The position numbers were made by a program, and so were the translations under genes. The notes under the pieces were generated by a model. It saw only the letters and a program-made list of their open reading frames with translations. It was not told the origin of the DNA and ran no database searches. Below are positions 4,436 to 23,850 of a DNA stretch of 32,000 nucleotides, piece by piece (positions within the stretch are counted from its first letter, which is position 1; every line of letters starts with the position of its first letter). This DNA is from Saccharolobus solfataricus (lineage in GTDB: Archaea > Thermoproteota > Thermoprotei_A > Sulfolobales > Sulfolobaceae), in contig NZ_LT549890.1 in NCBI RefSeq assembly GCF_900079115.1, positions 1,380,001 to 1,412,000 of the forward strand, given 5' to 3'.

Positions 4436-6560
4436 CTTTCAATTCTATAAGAGATTATCTGAGGATATACTTTAATCGGATTGTGTTAGGTGGAGAGATG
4501 TTCTTTCAATTCTATAAGAGATTATCCCATCTACCACACCGCGGACACTGGTATAAACATGCACCGGCTTTCAATTCTATAAGAGATTATCTCAGTCTTA
4601 TTGTCGAGGAGTAGTGGTAGGAGTGATACCTTTCAATTCTATAAGAGATTATCGGAAGAGACAAGACTCTACAGTACAATATGCCCCAGATGCTTTCAAT
4701 TCTATAAGAGATTATCAACCGGAAGTACGAACTATGTTGCTGAGATTGTGGTCTATGTCTTTCAATTCTATAAGAGATTATCTTTGTGGTACTTGTAGTT
4801 GTGATGCTGACGTTCCACTACTCTTTCAATTCTATAAGAGATTATCTCAAATCAACAAGTTACAGTAACCAACGGTACTTCAAACCCCTTTCAATTCTAT
4901 AAGAGATTATCTATGTTGTTGTTTGTTGAGTTGTGGTCTGCTGTGTAGTTGCTTTCAATTCTATAAGAGATTATCATCCAGACGAAGTGGGGGCAATCAT
5001 GCAGCCCCCCTCACTTTCAATTCTATAAGAGATTATCAAAGATAATGGATAATAACTTAACATTACAGAATTTAATGCTTTCAATTCTATAAGAGATTAT
5101 CTAAACTCATGTAGCGTTAGTTGGAGCGGATCTGCACAAGTACTTTCAATTCTATAAGAGATTATCCCAGTGTTTTACTTAACATCAGTACAAGGATCAA
5201 AACCCTTTCAATTCTATAAGAGATTATCAAGAGTTCGATCGGATTAAAGAGGAGATTGAGCAAAACTTTCAATTCTATAAGAGATTATCAGTGACTCAAT
5301 ACCGGTCACAATATCTTCAGGTGCTCCCATTCTTTCAATTCTATAAGAGATTATCCGTCCCCATCGAATACGTAAGAGTCTGGAGGGGAATTTACTTTCA
5401 ATTCTATAAGAGATTATCTAAAGGTTACGTTAGAACTAGAAAAGAATGGAAATCTGAACTTTCAATTCTATAAGAGATTATCTGGAGTTTTCAGATATTT
5501 TGTAAAGTACGTTCAGTTTCTTTCAATTCTATAAGAGATTATCAATAGGCTATGGTGTGTGGATGGACCTGTATCGTAAATACTTTCAATTCTATAAGAG
5601 ATTATCCACGCAAAAGGATAAACAATATGGTGCGATTCGAATGGACTTTCAATTCTATAAGAGATTATCACAAACAGTGTGTGTTACATTATCCTTCGAT
5701 TACAACGAACTTTCAATTCTATAAGAGATTATCCTTCTGTTCTGAAATTATAAAGGACATGCTGATAAAATTTCTTTCAATTCTATAAGAGATTATCCTA
5801 ACTGAAGAAGACCCAATTTATATTGCAGGATTTGTCTTTCAATTCTATAAGAGATTATCTGCAGAACCATTAGCTGGTACAGTAACTGTTTGCCAACTTT
5901 CAATTCTATAAGAGATTATCACCATAGTCCCTGATTTCGGTATTCTTTACCCTGTAACCCCTCTTTCAATTCTATAAGAGATTATCGCTTATCTCTCTCA
6001 TGCGCCATTTCTTCTTTCCTTCTTTCCTTTCAATTCTATAAGAGATTATCTATATCCCAAAAAATCTCAGACATTAGAGAGCATTTTTGTCTTTCAATTC
6101 TATAAGAGATTATCAATAGATCCAGAAAATGAATATGTCAAATTAGCTGACATTTCTTTCAATTCTATAAGAGATTATCTTTATTTTCTTGCGATATTTC
6201 ATTACCGAGACTTTTGCCTCTTTCAATTCTATAAGAGATTATCGTTGGCTGTTGGCTGTTGGCTGTTGTCGGTCGATGGCCCACTTTCAATTCTATAAGA
6301 GATTATCAAAGAATATCTTGACGCGTTAGCCGAATTTGACCGAACCTTTCAATTCTATAAGAGATTATCTTGCTTAGTCTTGATAAGTATACTAAAAGTT
6401 CGTTCTTGCTTTCAATTCTATAAGAGATTATCTACCCAACTAAATCATAACCTCTTTGTTGCAGAATTGTTCTTTCAATTCTATAAGAGATTATCAAGAA
6501 GAACCCCCAACTTGTTACGAGATCTTGCAAAAAGCTCTTTCAATTCTATAAGAGATTATC
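4436..6560 (-). CRISPR. CRISPR array 1: 34 identical 24-nt repeats and 33 spacers of 37-43 nt
   Basis: The plus strand shows CTTTCAATTCTATAAGAGATTATC at 4436, 4503, 4568, 4630 and onward to 6472 and 6537. The reverse complement is GATAATCTCTTATAGAATTGAAAG, which ends in the ATTGAAAG 5'-handle sequence. The array is therefore read on the minus strand from the leader at 6561 onward. Confidence 0.99.
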
Positions 6561-6791
<231 letters not shown>

Positions 6792-6860
6792 ATATTTCTC
6801 TCATCATCAAGCTTATAAGTTATAGAAAAGTTTATGAATCGGTAATACTAATTTTATGGT

Positions 6861-7574
<714 letters not shown>

Positions 7575-7939
7575 ATTTGTACATTGACGTTATGAGAGTG
7601 TGTATAGACATTACAATAGTGTTAAATAACATTTTAACTATTATTATTTACAATAATGTGGTTTTGTAGTATACAAATTCAACTTAAGCCTATATTAGAT
7701 TTACCTTACACCTTACATATTTGCGTAAATTCTTAATAAGAAGATTTTAATAGCTATGAATATATAAGACGTGTAATCTAAAAATTACATAACTCATAAA
7801 CGGAGTATGCTGAATATCTTATATTACACGCCACTTCCAGTAAACTTCCAAACATATAATAAATAATGTTATTCGACAGTATGAGAACAGAATCATCTCA
7901 GCGGTAGAATATATAGTCTTTTTCTTAATAGGCACTACA

Positions 7940-9300
7940 TCAGTATGGGAATCTCATTTTTCTGATATAAATGATAATATATGTAAGATTGAACCACACC
8001 AGTTTTATTCAAATATAACTGCATATATTTTATGAAAATGACAGTTAATAAGTCAGTTTTGAACAGAAGAATATAAATATATAGAATTAATTTCACGTAG
8101 CTGGAAGGAGGTGCATAGGGTTAGCTGGAGTCTGGGGGAATGACGTCTTCACTTCACGGAACGCGCGTTCTTGTTCCACTCTTACCTCCCGATCGAGGAG
8201 ATTCGAGAGGGAGACCGAGAACTCCCACAACTTTACCTTCCTCCAAGAACGGATCAAGAACCAGACATTCAAGAGAAGATAGGAAAGCAGAACGAGAACC
8301 AATTCCTTCCTCACGTCACAAGTCCTAGTCTTGATTCTGAACTCCTCAAGGGAGCGGAAGGCGTTCTCTATCCCCCACCTCTCCCTGTACATCTCGGCAA
8401 GGACTATGGCATCATAAAGATCCATCTCCCTCCTCACGAGGAAGGCAATAATCTTGCCGTCTTCCTTCCTCAGAATAATGAGATAAGCTCCACTCCCATG
8501 TCTCACGCAGAGAAATCCAGTATATCTAACTCCGCTAAAACTCACATCCACATCTTGCAACATCCCCTTGTACTTCTTGTACATCTGGGCCTTGGCAGAT
8601 ATGACGAAGTCCAAGCCCAACTCCAAGAGGAACCTAATCACTTCGTTCACCGCGAACTCCCTGTCCGCGAAGACCATGACGAGCCTCAGCTTGTCCTCCT
8701 CCAACTCCTTCACGATTACCTCCATCACCGCCTTGAAACCTTCAGCTACGTTCTTCACGGTCACTGGGATCACGTCCAAGAAGCTCCTCGTCCTCCCCAG
8801 GAGGAAGATCGCAGCTTGAACCAGTCCCCACGACGTCCCCTTAGTTGGCTTTATCCTACTCAAGAAACTCTTGTCAGCGTGGTATTGAGGTATGGCATGG
8901 AAGTCCACTGCTACCCTCCTGTCCCTGACTCCCCTTAACGTCATCCTCCCCATCTTCCTCAACGCATCCCTCACGTCCTCAACTTGAACCGCGTTCAACT
9001 TTCTCAACGCTCTTCTCCCATCTTTTCCCAACCTGCTCAAGTAGCTCCCACTCGCCTTAAGCAAGGCACTGAGGAGTTCCTCAGGGAAAAGTATTTTAGT
9101 GAGGACCGAGTAAATTATCTTGAGGGCGGACCTGGCGAAGTCCCGGTTGAACTTCGCCGGTTTAGTTGTATTCTCATGTTTCATATGTTCAAGTCCGCCC
9201 TCGTATATACAAACTTTTCTACAGAAATTCTCATCCTCTCGATTTTGTCTGTATTTCATTCATCTCATTTTTTACGCAAAAAATGAGATTCCCATACTGA
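7940..9300 (-). mobile_element. Insertion sequence, 1361 bp, IS4/IS5-type DDE transposase. Size and host suggest an ISC1359-like element; this is not verified.
   Basis: Perfect 22-bp terminal inverted repeats: TCAGTATGGGAATCTCATTTTT at 7940-7961 and its reverse complement at 9279-9300. It contains a single 388-codon ORF. The body is visibly more G+C-rich than the flanks. No obvious target-site duplication is present. Confidence 0.85.
8093..9259 (-). CDS. DDE transposase of the IS element
   Basis: A 388-aa ORF filling the IS. The C-terminal signature YRERWGIENAFRSLEEFRIK matches the Y-x2-R-x3-E-x6-K motif of IS4-family transposases. The true start may be the internal MKHENTT. Confidence 0.85.
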   Translation of the reverse strand: MKYRQNREDENFCRKVCIYEGGLEHMKHENTTKPAKFNRDFARSALKIIYSVLTKILFPEELLSALLKASGSYLSRLGKDGRRALRKLNAVQVEDVRDALRKMGRMTLRGVRDRRVAVDFHAIPQYHADKSFLSRIKPTKGTSWGLVQAAIFLLGRTRSFLDVIPVTVKNVAEGFKAVMEVIVKELEEDKLRLVMVFADREFAVNEVIRFLLELGLDFVISAKAQMYKKYKGMLQDVDVSFSGVRYTGFLCVRHGSGAYLIILRKEDGKIIAFLVRREMDLYDAIVLAEMYRERWGIENAFRSLEEFRIKTRTCDVRKELVLVLLSYLLLNVWFLIRSWRKVKLWEFSVSLSNLLDREVRVEQERAFREVKTSFPQTPANPMHLLPAT

Positions 9301-9531
9301 CATGCTCCGCCTCTAACAAAGTGACCGTAGCAGATCGGGATTCTCTGCCACCGTAGGAGTTGTAAAGAAGTAAAAAGGACTATTAACTGAGGGAATGCTA
9401 GGAATTGCTGAGTTAAGGATTTAACTGGCTATATTTTGTATTGACAAAAGCTAATTCTCTTCGCATCTACTAAGAAAAAGACTATATAATGAATCAATAA
9501 TTATGAGGTCCCTTGAAATGGATAACATTGG

Positions 9532-9662
9532 TCTCCTTTGTGAATTCTAAAATGCGGTGGTAAAGATGTTAACATTGGTAATAGCATATCTCTGCTATTC
9601 CGTAGTTTTCATTGAGTTAAATTCGTAGCAATCTTTAATATAAAGTGAATTCACAATGGATA
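9532..9662 (+). mobile_element. MITE copy 1 (131 bp)
   Basis: Terminal inverted repeats: TCTCCTTTGTGAATTC (9532-9547) against the reverse complement of GAATTCACAATGGATA (9647-9662), 14/16. A second, inverted copy lies at 27059-27197. The two copies share long internal blocks, for example TTAGTTAAATTCGTAGCAATCTTTAA. The size class recalls Sulfolobus SM-type MITEs. Confidence 0.6.
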
Positions 9663-10103
9663 ACCGTATGGCCCCCAATATCACTTAAGCCGGATACTTT
9701 AATTATGTAAGATTTTTTTGGAAAAAAATTAAGAATTATAGCCTCTCTCTTTGTCATCGGCTAAGTCCATATGTTAAGTCGGACCTGAGGTGGGGACAAA
9801 GTACATGTAGTAGTTTTAGGAAATTCCCTTATCATAAAAAGTCAAAATATTTATTCATGTATTTATAAATATCTTTCATTGTACTTCTTAATATTATAGC
9901 TTATCAATAAACATTTTTCATCTAACTAGGAAAGATTCATTATATATTTTTAACGTAACGTAAAAGTGTAACGATTTTCCTATAAATGCTATACATGAAA
10001 AGGCCAGATGAAGACGCTAAGTCTATATGTTAAGTAGGAAAAATATATAAATACGTTAAATAATTTATACTAAATTGGAACAGTCGTTGTTCACTCCCTT
10101 GAC

Positions 10104-10631
10104 TCATAGCAAAACACTAACTGAGCAAACCCTTCTGTACTGGCAAGCCTTACACAACAGAGGTGAGGGATTAACAACTGGAGGACTATCATCTTCTAAG
10201 CTCTCAACCAACTCGTTAACTACCTTACCTATATACTCAACGTGTTCTTTCCTAACCTCGATGTTTATCTTCCTCTCCTTATTCATCAATAACACAGTGT
10301 TCCTAACCCTAAAACCGTTTCTCTCAGCTAAGTAAGCATAAGCTAACAACTGTATCCTGAAGTGATTGTAGAACCTTCTATAGAACGCCTTAATCTCTAT
10401 TACGCTATCTTCAGTTAGAACGTCAACAATTCCATTCAATCCGCTATCCTTATCCCTCAAATGAACTTCGTAATATTTAGGTTCGGGAAAGTCCCTCACA
10501 ATCTCCTTTAAATTCACGTTCTTAGCTATCCTCTGACTATTCGTTATTGGCTCTTTCCATCCCATTTTCTTCCTTATCCAAGGTATGACCTTACATAAGG
10601 AATAGTCTTTTAAATCCGTTACACTAACCAT
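10104..10631 (-). CDS. cas4: Cas4 (RecB-like nuclease with a 4Fe-4S cluster)
   Basis: A 175-aa ORF with an N-terminal Cys (SLCKV) and a C-terminal CKACQYRRVC cluster. IVDVL and VIEIK form the nuclease motif. It overlaps cas2 by 13 nt. Confidence 0.9.
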   Translation of the reverse strand: MVSVTDLKDYSLCKVIPWIRKKMGWKEPITNSQRIAKNVNLKEIVRDFPEPKYYEVHLRDKDSGLNGIVDVLTEDSVIEIKAFYRRFYNHFRIQLLAYAYLAERNGFRVRNTVLLMNKERKINIEVRKEHVEYIGKVVNELVESLEDDSPPVVNPSPLLCKACQYRRVCSVSVLL

Positions 10632-10885
10632 TCCTCTAATCCCTCCCTACCTATTACAATCCTCCTCTCCCAATCCCTTATGCCTAAAGGGATTATGTGA
10701 ACTATGTCAGTATTTGTGTCAACTATTAGCTTAACAACTCTGACTAAATCCTTAACCCTTTGACTGTCAATATCACCCTCAAAGGCACTTCTCTGAATCC
10801 TCTCCAATCCCAGTTTCTTCAAATTATTGGCTAGTTTATTTCTCTTACTGTCATCGGAAACGTCATATACTACCAATAATTTCAA
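10619..10885 (-). CDS. cas2: Cas2
   Basis: An 88-aa ORF. MKLLVVYDVSDDSKRNKLANNLKKLGLERIQRSAFEG is the classical Cas2 ferredoxin-fold N-terminus. It lies directly downstream of cas1. Confidence 0.92.
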   Translation of the reverse strand: MKLLVVYDVSDDSKRNKLANNLKKLGLERIQRSAFEGDIDSQRVKDLVRVVKLIVDTNTDIVHIIPLGIRDWERRIVIGREGLEEWLV

Positions 10886-11805
10886 TCACATCACCAACTT
10901 GAAACCCCTATACTCCTTCCCCTCCCTTATACTTGACGCCAACTTTACCGCATGAGCCCTTATTGCTTGTATCAATGTTTTTGGATTATGATCACTCTCC
11001 TCCTTAACGTTCTCTTCCATTCCCTTCCTTATCAACTTAGCCAAATCTCCCCTACTGTTCTCCTCTATTAAACCCCCCTTAACCTTTAACCTAAAACCAC
11101 TTCTGAGAGCCCTAACTAATAAGAAGTCAATGTATGGTTTAAACATTTCTGAGAAATCGTAAACTAGACTCTCATTTCCAGGTCTATCTTTGTGTATAAA
11201 GCCTAGGTAGGGGTCTAACCCAGCTATAACCAGATATTTGAAAATTGTGTTATAAAGTATTGCGTAAGAGTAGTTCAATGCCATATTAAATTGGTCAGTC
11301 CCATCCACATCTCTACCGTCAAATCCAATATCCTTGGGTAGCAGTTGAGATATGTTCTGCCAATACACTCTAGCAGCAGCCGGTTCATCCTTATCCAACA
11401 ACTCCTTGTAATCGTTCTTAGTTCCAGTTACCCTAGCCCAATACTTTAAGTGTACACTTTGGTTGTAAATCTTTGAACTTATAATCTCCTCTCCGTATCT
11501 ATTGTCCTTCCTTACTACAATTGCCTCGTATTGAGCCTTCTTGGTCTTAACAGTCTCAGTTACGATAGAAGGTAATAATATCCCCCAAGGAGTCTCCCTA
11601 GAGTTCAAGAACATAACGCTTATACCATGAGTTAAGGCTAACGATAGGGCACTAGTTGAAATCGAACAAGACACAGTTATCAGTATTTCGTCGACTTCAG
11701 AAGGCGAAATCTCAACCTTCTTATCACCTTTCTTTATCACTAACATGTTCTTCTTGACGTAAACATATGCACCGTATTCAGATATTACTAAAGTCCTCAC
11801 GCTTA

Positions 11806-11809
<4 letters not shown>
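10886..11809 (-). CDS. cas1: Cas1 integrase
   Basis: A 307-aa ORF placed between csa1 and cas2, with a 4-nt overlap with csa1. Length and the alpha-helical C-terminal half (YSYAILYNTIFKYLVIAGLDPYLGFIHKDRPGNESLVYDFSEMFKP) are typical of Cas1. Confidence 0.93.
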
Positions 11810-12654
<845 letters not shown>

Positions 12655-12814
12655 AATATAATAGCAGTTGAAAAATCTAAAAACCGTTTTAAGGAGGGGG
12701 GTAAAAGAATTCCCGAATTTACTAGGGATTAACCTAGAATTAAGAAGATCATCTCTATATAAAGATTAATAATTAAACTAGGGAAAAAACTTACTTCATC
12801 GTTAAGAGAATAGT
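12655..12814. promoter_or_regulatory. Divergent control region between csa1 and leader 2
   Basis: An AT-rich 160-bp gap. ACTAGGG occurs twice (12721-12727 and 12777-12783). The first copy is part of the small palindrome CTAGG-GATTAA-CCTAG (12722-12737). A TATA-like CTATATAAAG lies near 12755. These are candidate Csa3a or other regulator sites; this is speculative. Confidence 0.3.
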
Positions 12815-13045
<231 letters not shown>

Positions 13046-14017
13046 GATAATCTCTTATAGAATTGAAAGATGCCAGTATGGTATCTGCACTATACCCTTG
13101 TAAGTTGGATAATCTCTTATAGAATTGAAAGGATCTACGGGATTGTCGACCTATACAACATGTTTGCCCGATAATCTCTTATAGAATTGAAAGATCGCTG
13201 ATTTGATGAAAGAGATCTCTGATGAGATGATGTCGATAATCTCTTATAGAATTGAAAGTCAGTACCGCCCGCTTTCCTCTGTTCTGTCACACCCACGATA
13301 ATCTCTTATAGAATTGAAAGGCATACTACTATGGCCTAGCAAAAAGCCTATCTGCAAAATTTGATAATCTCTTATAGAATTGAAAGTAGCACGATTACAA
13401 AGTTGAGTTTCTGCCACGCCCCCAAGATAATCTCTTATAGAATTGAAAGGTACGATACCAAGCGCCTTACCTCTTTCCTCTAAATATGATAATCTCTTAT
13501 AGAATTGAAAGCAACACAGCCACGACACGCCCGGTACTTACACACAAACCGATAATCTCTTATAGAATTGAAAGATCGTTATTAACGAGGCGAATGACGT
13601 GTTCAGGTATACCGATAATCTCTTATAGAATTGAAAGGTTTTCCCCTGGGCTATCCATTCGGTGATCTCCCCGTTTACGATAATCTCTTATAGAATTGAA
13701 AGTCAACTTCTCCTACAATTCTATCTTAGCATTAAAGAATTGATAATCTCTTATAGAATTGAAAGTTCCTCCAGCTGAAGAGTCCAGAAGACGTAACTGA
13801 AGGAGGATAATCTCTTATAGAATTGAAAGAAAGATATAATTCTGCATAGATTTTCTGTGACAGAAAGAGGGGATAATCTCTTATAGAATTGAAAGCATGT
13901 TTACGCCTTTAGAAGAAAGAGAATCAGTGGGCGGATAATCTCTTATAGAATTGAAAGACTGCTCCCCTGTTCTGTCCACAATCACGATACGCCGATAATC
14001 TCTTATAGAATTGAAAG

Positions 14018-14326
14018 GCCAACGTTTCTGCAATCTCTTCTCTACGTGCAGAAAAAAATGGAACAGCCACAGTATTTCCGGAAACTGCTACCGATCTGAG
14101 GAAGAAGAAAGTAGAGGTCGAGGAAACTAAGGCACATGCGCTAGTCCACGGCGCTCTGGGGAATTTGAAGGCAGGGACTACAATGACGTTGGAAAAGTTC
14201 GGACAGAGAGTCGACAACTGGTTGGCATCCCACGGCGTAAGTTTCAAACCATCTGAAACGACAAAACAGCTCATAAAGGAGGTAAGACTACAAAGAGCCA
14301 GAAGAAAAAGGGCGAAAAACGCATAA
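14018..14326 (+). pseudogene. 3' fragment of an unknown gene, truncated exactly at the CRISPR repeat
   Basis: The frame is open from the first base after the repeat to the TAA at 14324-14326 (102 codons). The only in-frame ATG is at 14183. The translation runs ANVSAISSLRAEKNGTATVFPETATDLRKKKVEVEETKAHALVHGALGNLKAGTTMTLEKFGQRVDNWLASHGVSFKPSETTKQLIKEVRLQRARRKRAKNA. Confidence 0.5.
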
Positions 14327-14367
14327 GAAGCTATTTATTTTTTATTCTCTATTTCCTATTTTATTAT

Positions 14368-14820
14368 ATGGAAGAAACAATAGTTATTCCGGATATATTA
14401 GATCTTATCGAAAAGGATAAACTACCAAGAGAACTCTACGCCCCGGACGGCTTTTTGGTTTACAAACCGTACGATCCAGCTATTGAAAGTCCCCTATTAG
14501 TCAACAGAAAGAAATGGAAGCTGTTCGCCAACTATACGCCAATAGAAGGCAGACCAGAAGAGGACACATGGATTGTAAAGTTGAATACTACCGAACAGTA
14601 TGTGGAAATACACGATCCAGAGCTAGTTTGGCTACTTTATTACATTAGGGTGGTACACCCAGGAGCGACACCAGAAGAAGCAGTCAACCACGAACTAGCT
14701 GAAGTTGAAAAGGATGGTGGGAAGTTCAAAAATGACGACGAGTTGATTGGCTATGCGATGTACTTGTATACAGCCTTAGCAATCGCCATTGCCTACGGAC
14801 TCCTTGTCGTAGTCGAATGA
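14368..14820 (+). CDS. Hypothetical 150-aa protein with a C-terminal hydrophobic helix; no family recognised
   Basis: A complete ATG-to-TGA ORF. The AT-rich upstream stretch TTTCCTATTTTATTAT abuts the ATG, giving a leaderless-style layout. The C-terminus is YAMYLYTALAIAIAYGLLVVVE. A T6 tract follows directly after the stop. Confidence 0.6.
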   Translation: MEETIVIPDILDLIEKDKLPRELYAPDGFLVYKPYDPAIESPLLVNRKKWKLFANYTPIEGRPEEDTWIVKLNTTEQYVEIHDPELVWLLYYIRVVHPGATPEEAVNHELAEVEKDGGKFKNDDELIGYAMYLYTALAIAIAYGLLVVVE

Positions 14821-14856
14821 TTTTTTCTGATTAACCGGGGAGTTAATTCTTTTTTT
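14821..14856 (+). terminator. Oligo-T terminator candidates downstream of the insert ORF
   Basis: T6 at 14821-14826 and T7 at 14850-14856. Archaeal RNA polymerase terminates at such T-runs. Confidence 0.45.
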
Positions 14857-17800
14857 AACGAATAACGTATGTTCTACCCTTATAATGCCTTAGGAGCGCT
14901 GCATACAGATTCCTGTCGGATAATCTCTTATAGAATTGAAAGACATTGTACCAGTGAAGGAATATTTCGATGCTATTATGAGATAATCTCTTATAGAATT
15001 GAAAGTCTTTCTATCGAAGTACTTTGCCAATGCTTCCTTGAGGGATAATCTCTTATAGAATTGAAAGAGTTTATTTCTAGTAACTCACGCCACGTTCTTT
15101 CAATTGTGATAATCTCTTATAGAATTGAAAGGATGTTGAAGCGGAAGATAGTATAATCACCACCTTGACGATAATCTCTTATAGAATTGAAAGTCGGGTC
15201 ATCTGCATCCAATGTCACGTATAACAGCTGTGGATAATCTCTTATAGAATTGAAAGTACAACGAGTTTCATCTTCTTTATTTCATGCCACCGTTTTGGAT
15301 AATCTCTTATAGAATTGAAAGAAATGGGATGATGAGGGTGTTCAACAGATACAACACCGATAATCTCTTATAGAATTGAAAGCAGGATTACCTCTAGAAT
15401 ATAACGTACGTAGGGTGCATTTGATAATCTCTTATAGAATTGAAAGTACAAATAACTAAGAACGCTGACGATTTCGTGAAGACCGCGATAATCTCTTATA
15501 GAATTGAAAGCTTCATATGTTAAACCATAACAGATTGCACGTGCCACTAGATAATCTCTTATAGAATTGAAAGAGGACAGCATCAAGGAGTTCTGGTTGT
15601 AATTGTTTCTCGTATGATAATCTCTTATAGAATTGAAAGATCTCTCATTTCTTGGCTTACCCTCACACGAATTTGGGCTTGATAATCTCTTATAGAATTG
15701 AAAGACAGTAATGAGGTGTAACCCCTGAGACCTCAGGAGAAGATAATCTCTTATAGAATTGAAAGTGGGAATACGTCTATGACTTACTAATGCCAGCGAA
15801 AGAGAGATAATCTCTTATAGAATTGAAAGCCGTGCTTCACGCCCTGTTTCTCCAAAACAAGAAAGGAGATAATCTCTTATAGAATTGAAAGATGTACCCA
15901 TATGGGTGAACTTGAAGAAAAAATGGTTAAGATAATCTCTTATAGAATTGAAAGATGCTGTACAGTTCTGCAGTTATCTTTTGGCTTAGAAATAGTGATA
16001 ATCTCTTATAGAATTGAAAGTTCAGAAGAGGAAGAGGAAGCAGACAGAGCGGTGGGGCTGATAATCTCTTATAGAATTGAAAGTTCAGTTTGCTAACGCC
16101 TGGGCTATTGATCCTTTTGCCGATAATCTCTTATAGAATTGAAAGTTATTTTCGCAATGATAGCTGGATCGATACCGTTCTTTGCCGATAATCTCTTATA
16201 GAATTGAAAGGCCACATAGTATTGACTACGTGACGGGAATAATAACTGATAGATAATCTCTTATAGAATTGAAAGCTTCTATGGCCATGATTCTTGCCAT
16301 TGGACGAAGTCCTCGATAATCTCTTATAGAATTGAAAGATCATCGAGTACGGAAGATTCCTAGGGTGGAGATCATTAGATAATCTCTTATAGAATTGAAA
16401 GTTCGTTGCGTTTACCATGTTCATGTAAATTAATACTTGGGATAATCTCTTATAGAATTGAAAGTCTTCGTCATAGCCTGGTCTTCCTGCACGTCCGCAA
16501 AGATAATCTCTTATAGAATTGAAAGATTATCTTCACATTAAACCCCACTCCTAGAGTTGAATTTGAGATAATCTCTTATAGAATTGAAAGGTATCAGCAG
16601 TGAACCATTCATACTGGATGTTGCGAATCGATAATCTCTTATAGAATTGAAAGGATAATAATCAACGAGGCAAACTCCATGTTCTACAAACGATAATCTC
16701 TTATAGAATTGAAAGTTTCAAAGGGAAAATCTGAATAAATACGTCTGGAAATTGGATAATCTCTTATAGAATTGAAAGAGTTGCTTTTTATAGTTTCTCT
16801 GACTGTGCACTGTCATGGATAATCTCTTATAGAATTGAAAGAGCTCTTCTCATGAAAGTTTATAAATTTTGTAGTTACATACTGATAATCTCTTATAGAA
16901 TTGAAAGACAAAATAATTTCTAGTCCAAGCTTTCACGGCTGCTTCTGATAATCTCTTATAGAATTGAAAGTACTGCAATGCGCGTTTCAATGCTAACAAT
17001 GCTCCGATGATAATCTCTTATAGAATTGAAAGCTTCAAGAATGAGCAAACCGCAAGCACTTAAAAAGATTGATAATCTCTTATAGAATTGAAAGTAACTA
17101 CTGCAGTAGTATTTTTTGCGTTAGCTACAATGTGATAATCTCTTATAGAATTGAAAGTAATTTCTGCATAAATATCTTCCACAACACGTTTGCTTACGGA
17201 TAATCTCTTATAGAATTGAAAGTCTTCAAGGCTTAATTCGCCTTGTTGTGTCCCACCCTCTAGATAATCTCTTATAGAATTGAAAGAAAGTACTTAGTCG
17301 TATAACAGTCTTCTTGGGCGAGGGATAATCTCTTATAGAATTGAAAGACTCAAAAAGAGTTTGAAAATTTTGTTGAATTTGTAAAGATAATCTCTTATAG
17401 AATTGAAAGGTAACTGGGTCGTGGACTGTGTACAACGACGGCGATAATGATAATCTCTTATAGAATTGAAAGGAAACTCGTGCCAATTTGTTGAGTCAAA
17501 ACTTAAATAGAATGATAATCTCTTATAGAATTGAAAGCATGGTGGGGGGGCGTCAAAAATTCAGAAATATTTTGCATGATAATCTCTTATAGAATTGAAA
17601 GAACTCCTTTGCAATCCTATATCTAGTGTAGCCGTCTAAGATAATCTCTTATAGAATTGAAAGCTGCTCCATCAAACGGCCCCGTGAGGGATACTATGAA
17701 GATAATCTCTTATAGAATTGAAAGAATTTGAACATAATTCGGCCTCGTCAGTTTTCCACAGATAGATAATCTCTTATAGAATTGAAAGTCCCTAACTTAG

Positions 17801-20800
17801 GTTGGGGTAAAGAAATAGAACATAGATGATAATCTCTTATAGAATTGAAAGTTTACTGACAACGCCATCATACTTACTAGCCCAACTAAGATAATCTCTT
17901 ATAGAATTGAAAGGTCCATTCTCCATTTATCTCAACCTTATCACAAATTTGGAGATAATCTCTTATAGAATTGAAAGTCAGTTCTAGAAAGAATTATTAG
18001 CATTAGATCTTCTAGACTGATAATCTCTTATAGAATTGAAAGCTCTCTATCCCAGATGGAATTCCAAAGGATCAAGCAGGATAATCTCTTATAGAATTGA
18101 AAGATCTGAATTTCCTCAGCTTCCATTGCATAATTTATTCTAGATAATCTCTTATAGAATTGAAAGTATTTACCTTAATATTATGTATAATAGATAAGAG
18201 CTCCCTGATAATCTCTTATAGAATTGAAAGACTATGGACCTACTACAGGGCCTATCTGACTTTCTGTCGATAATCTCTTATAGAATTGAAAGTTATTGTC
18301 AGAAAAAGAAATTATACTCCGATTAATAGCGATAATCTCTTATAGAATTGAAAGGTCAAAATTGCCCAACCGAACGTTAGCAAAAATGCAGCACGATAAT
18401 CTCTTATAGAATTGAAAGTCCCTTTCAGATTTGCAATATGTTAGAGCGAGCTTCGCAAAGATAATCTCTTATAGAATTGAAAGGCTGAATTGTAAAATTA
18501 CGTTTATTACTTTCAGTCAACCGATAATCTCTTATAGAATTGAAAGGTTTTATTTATAAACGGCGGGTCTAGATAAAATACAGTTGATAATCTCTTATAG
18601 AATTGAAAGTCACTCTTTCAGTCATCATTCTCTTTGCTGAGATTGCTCTGATAATCTCTTATAGAATTGAAAGGCGAAAACAATAGCAGGCGAAATAGAA
18701 GATAAAATGATAATCTCTTATAGAATTGAAAGGCAATAGACAATATAAGGAAGAGCTTACCACCTAGAGGCGATAATCTCTTATAGAATTGAAAGCCTAG
18801 AGGCGTAGCGGGCTCACAAGAAAACATTAATGATAATCTCTTATAGAATTGAAAGAATGCCTGAAGCAATAACGCCCAAGTTACATGCTCTTGGATAATC
18901 TCTTATAGAATTGAAAGATCCCGCTACGGCAATCCCTACGAATAGATCGGCATTAGATAATCTCTTATAGAATTGAAAGGTGTATAAGCACATTAGTAGG
19001 ATTAGGCACGGTACAAGGATAATCTCTTATAGAATTGAAAGAATCACGAAAGCGATACTAAGGGCAATACAATACAAACATGGATAATCTCTTATAGAAT
19101 TGAAAGCTTATTTTGGTGTCAATAATCTGTATGTTGCCGTATTGCGATAATCTCTTATAGAATTGAAAGAGATTGTTTTATTAATACCAAGTAGACAATT
19201 ATATATTTTGATAATCTCTTATAGAATTGAAAGCCAAAACATGTCACATGTGCCGATATTGATATTTACAAAGATAATCTCTTATAGAATTGAAAGAAAT
19301 CTACCGATCAACGGACGAGGGGGAACGCTAAGAAGATAATCTCTTATAGAATTGAAAGGGGAGTTCCCATTCGATTTTGGGAACCCTCAAGCACAGTCTG
19401 TGGATAATCTCTTATAGAATTGAAAGTTGTGCGCCTAGAGTTGCTACGCCTTGTTTCCACACCTCATGATAATCTCTTATAGAATTGAAAGCTAACTTGT
19501 TAAAGTTCTGTTGTAGCTCGTTAAGTTGTGATAATCTCTTATAGAATTGAAAGGTTCCAGCTAAGATGTTCTTTCCTGCAGTCTTTGTTGATAATCTCTT
19601 ATAGAATTGAAAGAACTAAGCCTTCACTAGGTGAGATAAAGAGCATAGCTATGATAATCTCTTATAGAATTGAAAGATCCGTTCTCCGTCCCGATCCGTA
19701 CCGTTCTCTGTACTGATAATCTCTTATAGAATTGAAAGAGCATAACTTCATCTTCTTCTACAACTTCGACAGCTTGATAATCTCTTATAGAATTGAAAGT
19801 TAATTTATTGTCATCAAATCTATTTAGATACGCTAGTATTAGATAATCTCTTATAGAATTGAAAGATATTTCTTCGAATGGGTTTTCTGTATCACCTTCT
19901 TCATGATAATCTCTTATAGAATTGAAAGCATTTGTTATCAACTGTCCGGGTCCAGCGCTAGATGCGGTGATAATCTCTTATAGAATTGAAAGCAAAGTCA
20001 GAGCTGGACTATCGTAGACATCTATAATAGATAATCTCTTATAGAATTGAAAGACGTAGCCTAGACTTGCTATAACTCCGTTGTATTGCCCGATAATCTC
20101 TTATAGAATTGAAAGATACCAACAGCAACAACAAACTTATTCTTCGCTCATACAGATAATCTCTTATAGAATTGAAAGACGAACACACCCCTTAAAACTC
20201 TTTTTCCAACATTCACCTGATAATCTCTTATAGAATTGAAAGCAAAGTCAGAGCTGGACTATCGTAGACATCTATAATAGAGGATAATCTCTTATAGAAT
20301 TGAAAGTCTTAGCGAACTTGCAAAATATTCCGACCAAAGCTAATAGATAATCTCTTATAGAATTGAAAGTCAGGTGAGGAAGATGGTCTCCAAAACTACT
20401 GTTATTGGTGATAATCTCTTATAGAATTGAAAGGAGAGCTACAAACACGCTACCTAATAAAATTTCCAGATTGTAGGATAATCTCTTATAGAATTGAAAG
20501 ATACAGATTTCGTTATCCATATCCTACATGACTTTCCGATAATCTCTTATAGAATTGAAAGATACATCGATCTTGTAATTAGATATCCATTGACTGTTAT
20601 GATAATCTCTTATAGAATTGAAAGATGGAATAGGCTCTCAACAGCAGTATAATTGGCAAGTATTGATAATCTCTTATAGAATTGAAAGTCTACTCTTATA
20701 ATTCCGTTACTTATCTTAACAGAGAACGGATAATCTCTTATAGAATTGAAAGCGTTTCTATTGCAAGGTCTGAGATTTTTGGCCTGAGTAGATAATCTCT

Positions 20801-23800
20801 TATAGAATTGAAAGGTATTGAAACGCTTAAGGTCAGCTCTAATTCTGTACGGATGATAATCTCTTATAGAATTGAAAGATGTTACTAAGTAAGTTTAATA
20901 ATATATTATAAAATGCCATATAGATAATCTCTTATAGAATTGAAAGCTAAGCAGTGACTCACAGTTTAGACATTCACAAGTATCGATAATCTCTTATAGA
21001 ATTGAAAGTTCTAAGCGTGTAAAGATCTATCTGACAACACGAAACTATGGATAATCTCTTATAGAATTGAAAGTTGAATATTGTACAAAGGAACGTTTAA
21101 CCCTATAATAGACGATAATCTCTTATAGAATTGAAAGCAATCCCATTCGTTTTACTCACTTCTAAGAACCTCGCGATAATCTCTTATAGAATTGAAAGAG
21201 TCTCTGCATCATGATCCCTGCCCCAGCTAAGACGTTCTGATAATCTCTTATAGAATTGAAAGACGATTTTCGGTGTGAATAATGTAAATTTGCAAGTATC
21301 TGGATAATCTCTTATAGAATTGAAAGGTCTTTATGGCCCTCTGGGTCTTTCCACCATTGAGAGGAGATAATCTCTTATAGAATTGAAAGTTATCCTCATT
21401 CTATCGGTGAGTGGAACAAATTGGGTAGCGATAATCTCTTATAGAATTGAAAGATCGTTATGCTGTAAACTTCCCCGGTTCTCAATCCCGTTTGATAATC
21501 TCTTATAGAATTGAAAGAGTTAACAATACTTTATTGTCAAAGAAGCAAGGATATGCGGATAATCTCTTATAGAATTGAAAGTTCAAACTAGATCTAGAAG
21601 ATTTCTATCGGCATCTTTACATGATAATCTCTTATAGAATTGAAAGACGATATGAAAGTTGCCAGAGCCTTAAACAGAATTGGTTCGATAATCTCTTATA
21701 GAATTGAAAGGCTTCTTGTCCCTGAACTCCTTCTTGAAATGGATTTATTGATAATCTCTTATAGAATTGAAAGTTTCGTATAAGGACCAGAACGGCAATA
21801 CCCAAACTGTGATAATCTCTTATAGAATTGAAAGCTACTACATCATCCTCTACCACGCCAAGCCAACAACCGATAATCTCTTATAGAATTGAAAGATCTA
21901 GCGTTGTCTCTGCCGTTATATATTTGAAAGTGTGATAATCTCTTATAGAATTGAAAGATCGCTGATCCAGAACCACGTGGCGAATACAGGAAGAACTAGA
22001 TAATCTCTTATAGAATTGAAAGATCAAAAGTCCGCTATGGTCTAACGGTGTAAATAATTCTGATAATCTCTTATAGAATTGAAAGAATTGGATCCCTACG
22101 GTTGACGGATCACCGAAAGTGTGATAATCTCTTATAGAATTGAAAGATCATATTTTGAATTCTCTTATACAGAAATCTTTGATATGATAATCTCTTATAG
22201 AATTGAAAGATAGCTATATATGGAAATGTTCCAGACGCGGAATATGTTGCGATAATCTCTTATAGAATTGAAAGAAGCCTACACAGGATAGGATACTCAA
22301 ATTATATGAAAATGATAATCTCTTATAGAATTGAAAGTTTGCGCATTTACTTTTGTATGAGCTAGGCTATTTACATCATGATAATCTCTTATAGAATTGA
22401 AAGCTGAAATATCCTTCAAATTGATTTGCCAATAAATTAAGATAATCTCTTATAGAATTGAAAGTGTTCTGTCGTTACTGTCGTAAAGCACGTCCTATTA
22501 TGATAATCTCTTATAGAATTGAAAGACAGTGCAGAAGTCTAATCCAAATTATTCTACTTTAGCGATAATCTCTTATAGAATTGAAAGTCCTTGGAGATGT
22601 TGATGTTTTATACGGTATTATGTGAAGATAATCTCTTATAGAATTGAAAGGCACAATTCGCCAACGATTTCGGTTCGCTTTATACCTTGATAATCTCTTA
22701 TAGAATTGAAAGCAAATTTCGGCGAAAATTGTACCGAATTTCGGCATTGCTGGGATAATCTCTTATAGAATTGAAAGAAGATCATGGTATTGATATTCAA
22801 AAACATTATTCAGAGTGGATAATCTCTTATAGAATTGAAAGATTAGAAAAGTTTAAGATTACGCATGCAAATATGTTTTTGATGATAATCTCTTATAGAA
22901 TTGAAAGTTCTGTTTCGAAGAAAACCCGCCTCAGATTCATTATGGGGATAATCTCTTATAGAATTGAAAGAAATCAAACGGAAACTCCCCGGATATTATC
23001 ATGTCTAAAGATAATCTCTTATAGAATTGAAAGCCTCATCGTAAACATGCAATCTTGCATATTCAGTGTAGATAATCTCTTATAGAATTGAAAGGCGATA
23101 TATGTTATAAGAGGAGAAGGGACTTTACCCCCTGATAATCTCTTATAGAATTGAAAGATATACATCGCCGGTTTTATAGCAACTGCACAGCAACAAATGA
23201 TAATCTCTTATAGAATTGAAAGGAAGTTGCAAAAATTGCCAATGTTTTTTTCAAACGCGTGATAATCTCTTATAGAATTGAAAGATTTATGATGAAAATA
23301 GGAAATTTTTCAGAAGAATTATAGATAATCTCTTATAGAATTGAAAGAAAAGTTTAAATACCCGAAGCCACAAAGGTAAAAATAGATAATCTCTTATAGA
23401 ATTGAAAGCGTTCTAGAGCTAAACGATGCATACGCGGTGGTACAACTAGATAATCTCTTATAGAATTGAAAGATTCGGGGAAAACTTATGCATTATAAGA
23501 AGAAGAGATATTTGATAATCTCTTATAGAATTGAAAGTCAAATAAGGAACAACTCTGGGTAAGCCCACAATACGCAAGATAATCTCTTATAGAATTGAAA
23601 GCTTAGCGTCTCAACCTGAACCAAACTTCCTAGATCAACGATAATCTCTTATAGAATTGAAAGTAAACTAGATCCTTATATTTCACGTAAATGTAAAGGG
23701 GGATAATCTCTTATAGAATTGAAAGTAAGGAGTAAGCTAGCACTAGCAATAGCGGTTGCAATAGATAATCTCTTATAGAATTGAAAGGTTCATCAGTTCT

Positions 23801-23850
23801 ACCTTTTGGTCCAAAGGCTGATCCAAGAGAATCTCTTATAGAATTGAAAG

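Follow-up and report, generated by a model that had tools for sequence, protein, structure and literature searches.

We examined a 32,000-nucleotide stretch of the Saccharolobus solfataricus genome (contig NZ_LT549890.1, positions 1,380,001 to 1,412,000; this whole stretch is called the window here), in which one slot of a long CRISPR array holds 901 bp in place of a spacer. We observed that this oversized slot is real and not an artefact. The 901 bp (hereafter the insert) are, with high confidence, a single contiguous fragment of an unsequenced pNOB8-type conjugative plasmid, lodged in one slot of locus D in a single lineage of S. solfataricus. It contains an intact open reading frame (ORF) of 150 codons, ORF150, and pieces of two other plasmid genes, one at each end. 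As the route of entry we favour gap repair through two plasmid-matching spacers, to which we assign a probability of roughly 40%. CRISPR arrays are as a rule very regular, a molecular ruler setting the length of their spacers. A perfectly bordered, gene-bearing slot of 0.9 kb therefore serves as a natural experiment on the ways, other than normal adaptation, by which foreign DNA gets into an array.

The oversized slot and its borders

The slot and its two borders are as follows.

13994-14017, plus strand: repeat 16, perfect; left border of the insert
14018-14918, plus strand: insert, 901 bp, in a single slot
14919-14942, plus strand: repeat 17, perfect; right border of the insert

The original prediction, made from the letters of the window, had described two perfect repeats 901 bp apart among spacers of 35-44 nt, and our repeat map confirmed this: the other 156 slots of the array measured 35-44 nt, with a mode of 39. 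The insert breaks this array's 35-44 nt length ruler, to which a canonical spacer (type I-A, CCN PAM) would keep. It is flanked on both sides by intact repeats, with zero extra bases. Both borders are exact repeat ends, yet they lie inside plasmid genes.

A second complete S. solfataricus genome, CP050869.1 (3.02 Mb), carried the same 901 bp between the same neighbouring spacers. The exact ORF150 protein was on record in CP050869.1 and also in Logan data, where separate sequencing runs gave 15 short contigs with it; the five of these contigs that were examined were 100% identical across both the repeat 16/insert and the insert/repeat 17 junctions. An assembly error, which had been named as one way in which the oddity might dissolve, was ruled out by the same junctions in two complete genomes and five independent read-set assemblies.

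No terminal inverted repeats and no transposase domain were found in the insert, as the original prediction had stated, and there was no target-site duplication; the marks of an insertion sequence (IS), a miniature inverted-repeat transposable element (MITE) or a transposon are therefore missing, and an IS or MITE insertion was rejected for lack of terminal inverted repeats. Positions 13900-15000 contained no Rfam family, and the window outside the insert had no match to the insert longer than 14 nt.

The insert is a fragment of a pNOB8-type plasmid

The insert contains the following features (the short T-tracts and the terminal segments are listed further below).

14018-14326, plus strand: truncated ORF, last 102 codons and stop of a large plasmid gene, cut at the repeat border
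14327-14367, plus strand: AT-rich intergenic region upstream of ORF150
14368-14820, plus strand: ORF150, intact, 150 codons, with a hydrophobic C-terminal helix
14831-14846, plus strand: palindromic motif copy TTAACCGGGGAGTTAA, a degenerate version of the 16-nt motif TAAACTGGGGAGTTTA
14855-14917, minus strand: convergent gene stub, last 20 codons (DRNLYAALLRHYKGRTYVIR) and stop of a 53-codon plasmid gene

A virus or a plasmid had been proposed as the source of the insert, its DNA being taken up as a giant spacer through aberrant Cas1-Cas2 integration or left as the scar of a recombination, and pNOB8-type plasmids had been suggested for comparison; the searches pointed to such a plasmid. At the DNA level the 901 bp had no match in phage and plasmid collections, and protein-mode searches of the insert in phages were also empty. 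At the protein level, both ORFs matched adjacent, co-linear genes of pNOB8. The order along the insert corresponded to pNOB8 positions 40805-40563 and then 40484-40116, in equal orientation, and co-linearity extended over pNOB8 40060-40818. Four metagenomic contigs (L002, L005, L006 and L007) were likewise co-linear with the insert, at positions 54-894 of its 901. The metagenomic homologues sit on conjugative-plasmid contigs with DUF87/TrwB and VirB4-like ATPases (a TraG/VirB4-like context). Homologous genes in matching order and orientation are what is expected of a pNOB8-type conjugative plasmid. The search for a closer donor gave nothing better in IMG/VR, a best hit of 62% in the JGI metagenomes and a best hit of 59% in the GTDB genomes.

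The frame of the truncated ORF is open from 14018 through to the TAA at 14324-14326. The original prediction had read it as the 3' part of a gene cut exactly at the repeat boundary, and this was borne out by the plasmid homologues: it was 52% identical to the pNOB8 coding sequence (CDS) 40548-40799, which adjoins the ORF150 homologue there, and it aligned with the C-terminus of a 485-aa partial gene of L002, the full-length form of which is 735 aa in another contig (L072). The source gene of ~735 codons very probably belongs to the conjugation region of the plasmid. An internal start of pNOB8 and L049, consisting of a Shine-Dalgarno sequence and GTG, is missing from the truncated ORF (as read from the alignment); because this conserved start is missing, the truncated ORF is probably a pseudogene.

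ORF150 was confirmed as a complete 150-codon frame. It was 58-63% identical to six full-length homologues and retained all 68 columns that are invariant among them; its identity to the pNOB8 CDS 40038-40496 was 62%. On this alignment, ORF150 is a conserved protein of Sulfolobales conjugative plasmids. Its AlphaFold2 model had a pLDDT (predicted local distance difference test) score of 92. It belonged to no Pfam or PHROG family and found no fold match in PDB or BFVD. The AT-rich region in front of it, which had been described as a promoter-like gap, is conserved in the plasmid homologues (alignment columns ~585-640). The region itself has thus stood up, while its function is still a prediction: a putative TATA-type promoter for a leaderless ORF150 mRNA.

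The palindromic motif, a hairpin motif specific to these plasmids, provided a further mark of the plasmid family. There were 108 copies of TAAACTGGGGAGTTTA in 427 kb of plasmid-like loci (17 in pNOB8, L001, and 10 in pKEF9, L067) and 0 in chromosomal cas loci. In nearly every homologous locus a copy stands ~17 nt past the ORF150 stop, and the insert has its own copy at this conserved position. That copy is degenerate, with 3 mismatches (one pair of them compensatory), and its GGGG/CCCC centre is inverted. A further copy is found in pNOB8 and L049, at the place to which the left end of the insert maps. We take the motif to be a recombination site, presumably; the motif string was not found in the literature searched.

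The right border of the insert cuts the convergent 53-codon gene, a point that the original prediction had missed. The gene stub was recognized by tblastx (insert 839-898 against L002 1994-2053), and its frame was read by hand from the sequence. Taken together, the co-linear parts make the insert one contiguous piece of plasmid, with its right border inside this convergent gene and its left border inside the large gene.

Locus identity and the age of the insert

Csa1 led us to the corresponding loci in strain P2 (AE006641.1) and in 98/2-type strains. The P2 locus D has 95 spacers of 35-42 nt, and window spacers 58-77 and 124-157 were common to it; with 98/2 the window shared spacers 59-157. 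The plus-strand array of the window is assigned to locus D because of its position and these common spacers. Neither the P2 nor the 98/2 array had an oversized slot, and the insert was absent from both.

In CP050869.1 the insert occupies slot 32. This strain has window spacers 13-28, 35-69, 71-108 and 139-157 in common, lacks spacers 29-34 and 109-138, and has 28 leader-proximal spacers unlike those of the window. Upstream of the insert, 15 slots have accumulated in the window and 31 in CP050869.1. Judged from the shared spacers, window spacers 1-57, the insert included, are lineage-specific growth at the leader end. By the same comparison, the insert entered later than the split from P2 and 98/2 and was then inherited like a spacer. 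It is older than the split between the window strain and CP050869.1, because the latter has the identical insert with the same neighbouring spacers.

The original prediction had called for an alignment with orthologous arrays; this showed that the insert is absent in P2 and 98/2, and an insert-free array that keeps this region was not among the four strains compared. It had also allowed that two arrays might merely abut a conserved resident gene, and this fails, since the segment is missing from P2 and 98/2. Over its last 100 bp the insert had no similarity to the C or D leaders, and this tail is made up of coding sequence of the plasmid; a second leader there was therefore ruled out.

Two insertion sequences were seen in the locus D of CP050869.1 (L013). 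One, with a DDE transposase (6537-7662), is in the leader, ~60 bp upstream of repeat 1. The other (13547-14651) lies inside slot 80, which is window spacer 70.

Relation to earlier reports

A plasmid fragment of 899 bp between two repeats was described for S. solfataricus locus F (Garrett et al. 2015, PMC4390879, section 4.5, with reference to Lillestøl et al. 2009). It resembles the insert in species, repeat family, kind of donor and placement between repeats, and the lengths are 899 and 901 bp. Its location according to the review is locus F, which has no leader, whereas the insert is in the leader- and cas-adjacent locus D. The two are almost certainly the same object. The same section gives the P2 locus D an irregularity of a 'half spacer plus two atypical repeats'; the P2 locus D (L069) was fully regular in our analysis, and this irregularity was not seen. 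An ORF150 gene was not on record in P2. The review may have swapped the labels of loci D and F.

The insert is therefore essentially known already, in so far as section 4.5 of the review mentions the fragment, without gene content, dating or mechanism, and its novelty is low because the oddity is already on record. What is added here is the anatomy, the dating and mechanisms that can be tested.

The review also describes an IS inside an array spacer (ISC1359, section 4.5). Such IS or MITE insertions, including that in slot 80 of CP050869.1, are like the insert in producing an oversized slot that interrupts the array. However, an IS lands within a spacer, and a transposase and terminal repeats come with it, while the insert runs from repeat edge to repeat edge and has neither. 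Mini-CRISPR arrays on plasmids and viruses of Sulfolobales (pNOB8, pKEF9; PMC4390879, section 2.2) involve the same plasmid family and host-like repeats; they are arrays on plasmids, though, and the insert is plasmid DNA within a chromosomal array.

The ORF150 module adjoins CRISPR repeats in other contigs

In the window, 98 bp separate the ORF150 stop from repeat 17. In contexts independent of one another, we found the ORF150 module joined to CRISPR repeats that belong to three different families. It may be a new observation that at least two further contigs, unrelated to this one, have the same plasmid gene next to CRISPR repeats.

In L064 (528-1131; metagenome contig OGCG01026766.1), a distant ORF150 homologue with 28% identity runs into an array of the repeat GTAACAACACAAAGAAACTAAAAC, present in at least 3 copies. 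The last ~5 codons of this homologue are replaced, and its stop codon lies within the first repeat. In L049 (4424-5712; metagenome contig OGCG01001870.1), a mini-array of the repeat GATAATCCTTGATGGAATTGAAAG (4 good copies and one degenerate) begins 150 bp past the ORF150 homologue. It is followed by a 390-bp slot with a 106-codon DUF5658-like membrane ORF, and then by a repeat and a partial repeat. The context of L049 is not clearly that of a plasmid (AAA_14/DUF4143, a winged helix-turn-helix protein, PsiE and a methyltransferase). In L050 (2305-2463), a mini-array of two repeats and one spacer, with the repeat GTTAATCCTCAAT[G/A]GAATTGAAAG, stands downstream of an ORF150 homologue, at a distance of 1.2 kb; a copy of the plasmid motif precedes it by 54 nt.

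By chance, an array start within 200 bp would be expected at ~0.02-0.05 loci among the ~50-55 examined, which is a post-hoc estimate and not a computed test. The association of ORF150 with repeats suggests a recombination hot spot or a common site of plasmid mini-arrays.

Gap repair through two spacers is the favoured route of entry

The terminal segments of the insert are as follows.

14018 onwards, plus strand: first ~39 nt of the insert, beginning GCCAACGTTTCTGCAATCTC
14877-14879, plus strand: CCC, which reads as a CCN protospacer-adjacent motif (PAM), directly 5' of the last 39 nt
14880-14918, plus strand: last 39 nt of the insert, TTATAATGCCTTAGGAGCGCTGCATACAGATTCCTGTCG; a candidate former ordinary spacer of the modal length

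We propose that the host array once had two ordinary spacers from the donor plasmid, co-oriented and ~0.9 kb apart on the plasmid. On the return of this plasmid, a break or gap between both spacers would have been repaired with the plasmid as template; an equivalent route would be 'ends-out' recombination with a plasmid fragment released by interference. Crossovers in the two ~39-bp homologies between spacer and protospacer would have swapped the repeat(s) between both spacers for the intervening plasmid DNA, and the two old spacers would have ended up as the outermost ~39 nt on either side of the insert. Both plasmid-targeting CRISPR RNAs (crRNAs) would thereby have been destroyed, an outcome that would be selected if targeting were harmful. 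Gap repair would leave borders exactly at repeat ends and plasmid genes cut at arbitrary points. In L064, the ORF150 homologue is cut exactly at a repeat border, which is expected from a single spacer/protospacer crossover. If gap repair is right, spacers act as recombination handles, and targeted plasmids can erase immunity and leave genes behind.

Spacer-protospacer recombination has reportedly been documented in staphylococci by Varble et al. in 2019, and Kurosawa and Grogan are said to have observed, in 2005, recombination with short homologies in Sulfolobus. In the former case, as in our proposal, 30-40 bp of identity between spacer and target reportedly serve as the crossover site, with junctions exactly at the repeat border. 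It involves a single crossover and a phage-array fusion for transduction in bacteria, whereas we propose two crossovers and a fixed internal fragment in an archaeon.

The arrays do target this plasmid family. Spacer 2 (13132-13169) matched, in 11/12 residues at the protein level, the upstream part of the insert's large gene in L004 (154-189), and several further spacers matched related plasmid loci. Judged from these matches, the arrays frequently target the pNOB8-type plasmid family. Spacers 13-20 had no significant protein-level match to related plasmids. A CCN was found 5' of the protospacer in 4/4 long spacer-protospacer matches. Spacer 59 (17602-17639) was identical (38/38) to an element of Metallosphaera yellowstonensis MK1 (L010:7393-7430), with a CCT PAM. 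A PAM ahead of a terminal segment of spacer length, as double recombination would leave it, is present in the insert (chance 11-33%). The internal slot of L049 has no CCN ahead of its last ~39 nt and adds nothing to the PAM argument.

Several points weigh against gap repair. The PAM is a weak signal, since a CCN would be found at that distance by chance in 11% of cases for 38-40 nt and in 33% for 35-44 nt. None of the 339 distinct spacers in the C and D arrays of the four strains (P2, 98/2 and array C included) corresponded to an end of the insert, though among these strains this part of the array was kept only together with the insert. A protein-level search for the last 39 nt as a spacer, within spurious array ORFs, was empty even for the window's own lineage. 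The best donor match found was 62-63% identical in amino acids, and this also counts against direct integration by Cas1-Cas2 (see below). Finally, two crossovers inside homologies of 39 bp are expected to be rare. We infer the mechanism, as no array with the end segments as spacers was found, nor any closer donor. The 339 spacers also gave no sign of self-targeting, as 0 of them matched the insert.

Other routes of entry

A somewhat unlikely route would be aberrant adaptation: a plasmid fragment, too long and left untrimmed, would have been integrated by Cas1-Cas2 (with Cas4/Csa1) at the repeat that was then leader-proximal, and this repeat would have been duplicated as happens with an ordinary spacer, in a casposase-like manner. 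It agrees, no less than gap repair does, with the exact borders and the two perfect flanking repeats, and with a contiguous fragment that has no internal repeat and whose genes are cut at arbitrary points. The young, lineage-specific and leader-proximal location and the intact csa1-cas1-cas2-cas4 cassette adjoining it also fit, and the plasmid gene of L064 is likewise joined exactly to a repeat border. However, all 156 other slots obey a strict 35-44 nt ruler, nor does this route predict that a CCN should stand one modal spacer length from the right end. To our knowledge, no kb-sized spacer from CRISPR Cas1-Cas2 has been reported, which also counts against this route.

Casposons would be comparable with the insert only if the Cas1-Cas2 model were right; they share kb-sized DNA, a Cas1-type integrase and duplication of the target (here the repeat). 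In contrast, neither a casposase nor a polymerase is encoded in the insert, terminal inverted repeats are missing, and its only genes, the truncated ORF, ORF150 and the stub, had no Pfam match. If Cas1-Cas2 did integrate the fragment, the CRISPR integrase would retain a casposase-like capacity in vivo. A wider reading takes the repeat-edge junctions here and in L064, L049 and L050 as the outcome of one general process, in which Cas1-Cas2 now and then adds or removes DNA of several hundred bp up to kb at repeat borders. It is quite improbable in our view; if true, casposase-like Cas1-Cas2 would account for gene-bearing 'giant spacers' as well as for the leaderless plasmid mini-arrays adjoining ORF150.

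We consider it unlikely that the insert arose by repeat-to-repeat recombination with a plasmid mini-CRISPR near ORF150, either through integration and later deletion or through transfer of a pre-formed repeat-fragment-repeat unit. The six repeats of pNOB8, which are 2 nt off the host repeat, would provide a substrate, and repeats stand near ORF150 homologues or are fused to them in L049, L050 and L064, the L049 mini-array having its own gene-bearing slot of 390 bp. Rearrangement of arrays by recombination between repeats is on record (PMC4390879, section 4.4) and counts for this route. On the other hand, the left border demands a second event ending at a repeat edge within a gene (~1 in 63 for a random deletion), and a donor already so structured merely shifts the question. 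Nor is the 98-bp tail of the insert a leader: it is coding sequence of the plasmid and matches plasmids without arrays; neither flanking repeat is of the plasmid-type variant.

That two independent arrays flank a resident chromosomal gene is next to impossible: only the raw picture of a gene with repeats on either side speaks for it, while the P2 and 98/2 arrays are continuous without the segment, the segment is plasmid DNA whose tail is unlike the C and D leaders, and repeat 16 is perfect and not a degenerate terminal repeat, so that neither a second leader nor conservation in relatives was found. An assembly artefact or a transposable-element insertion, which has nothing but the odd length in its favour, is as good as dismissed by the shared junctions and by the missing transposon marks, and the genuine IS in slot 80 of the sister strain (1105 bp, DDE transposase) looks different.

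T-tracts and the present role of the insert

The original prediction had noted oligo-T tracts in the insert, and we found three of them, starting at 14338, 14821 and 14850.

14338-14343, plus strand: T6 tract, the first of three, terminator-like
14821-14826, plus strand: T-tract
14850-14856, plus strand: T-tract

Runs of at least six T numbered 3 in the 901-bp insert, whereas the remaining 9904 bp of the array had 2, so that they are enriched ~16-fold in the insert. Oligo-T tracts are termination signals in archaea. Leader-driven transcription of the precursor crRNA (pre-crRNA) may end at these tracts; with termination inside the insert, the 141 downstream spacers would therefore rely on read-through or internal promoters. 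Three terminator-like tracts upstream of 141 spacers are relevant to the transcription of very long arrays in Sulfolobus. The insert would be a passenger and not a working spacer. ORF150 may be expressed from its native promoter, because the conserved upstream region is kept. As a variant of the wider, quite improbable reading given above, the ORF150 module might be selected inside arrays since its terminators would silence the downstream spacers.

The arrays, leader and cas cassette of the window

The window contains two divergent CRISPR arrays, both built on the repeat GATAATCTCTTATAGAATTGAAAG, with an adaptation cassette between them.

13046-23850, plus strand: CRISPR array, 158 repeats and 157 slots, homologous to S. 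solfataricus P2 locus D
12655-13045, plus strand: leader, between csa1 and repeat 1 of the plus-strand array
4436-6560, minus strand: divergent array C, 34 repeats
6861-12654: adaptation cassette between both arrays
6861-7574, plus strand: csa3
8093-9259, minus strand: IS transposase
10104-10631, minus strand: cas4
10619-10885, minus strand: cas2
10886-11809, minus strand: cas1
11806-12654, minus strand: csa1

The gene identities of the cassette are Pfam labels taken over from the 99.97%-identical stretch of CP050869.1 and from strain P2. The IS transposase (DDE_Tnp_1) between csa3 and cas4 is present in P2 and CP050869.1 as well. The final 200 bp of the leader were near-identical to the leader of array C (score 395; highest score among the shuffles, 30).

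In the plus-strand array, 157 of the 158 repeat copies were perfect, and 100 shuffles gave not one repeat match. The sole degenerate copy is the terminal one (23827-23850; beginning GAGAATCTC, 1 mismatch). Two blocks of two spacers each, at 19968-20115 and 20218-20369, were ~85% alike (cross-matches; period 127 in TRF), which suggests an old internal duplication of repeat-spacer units.

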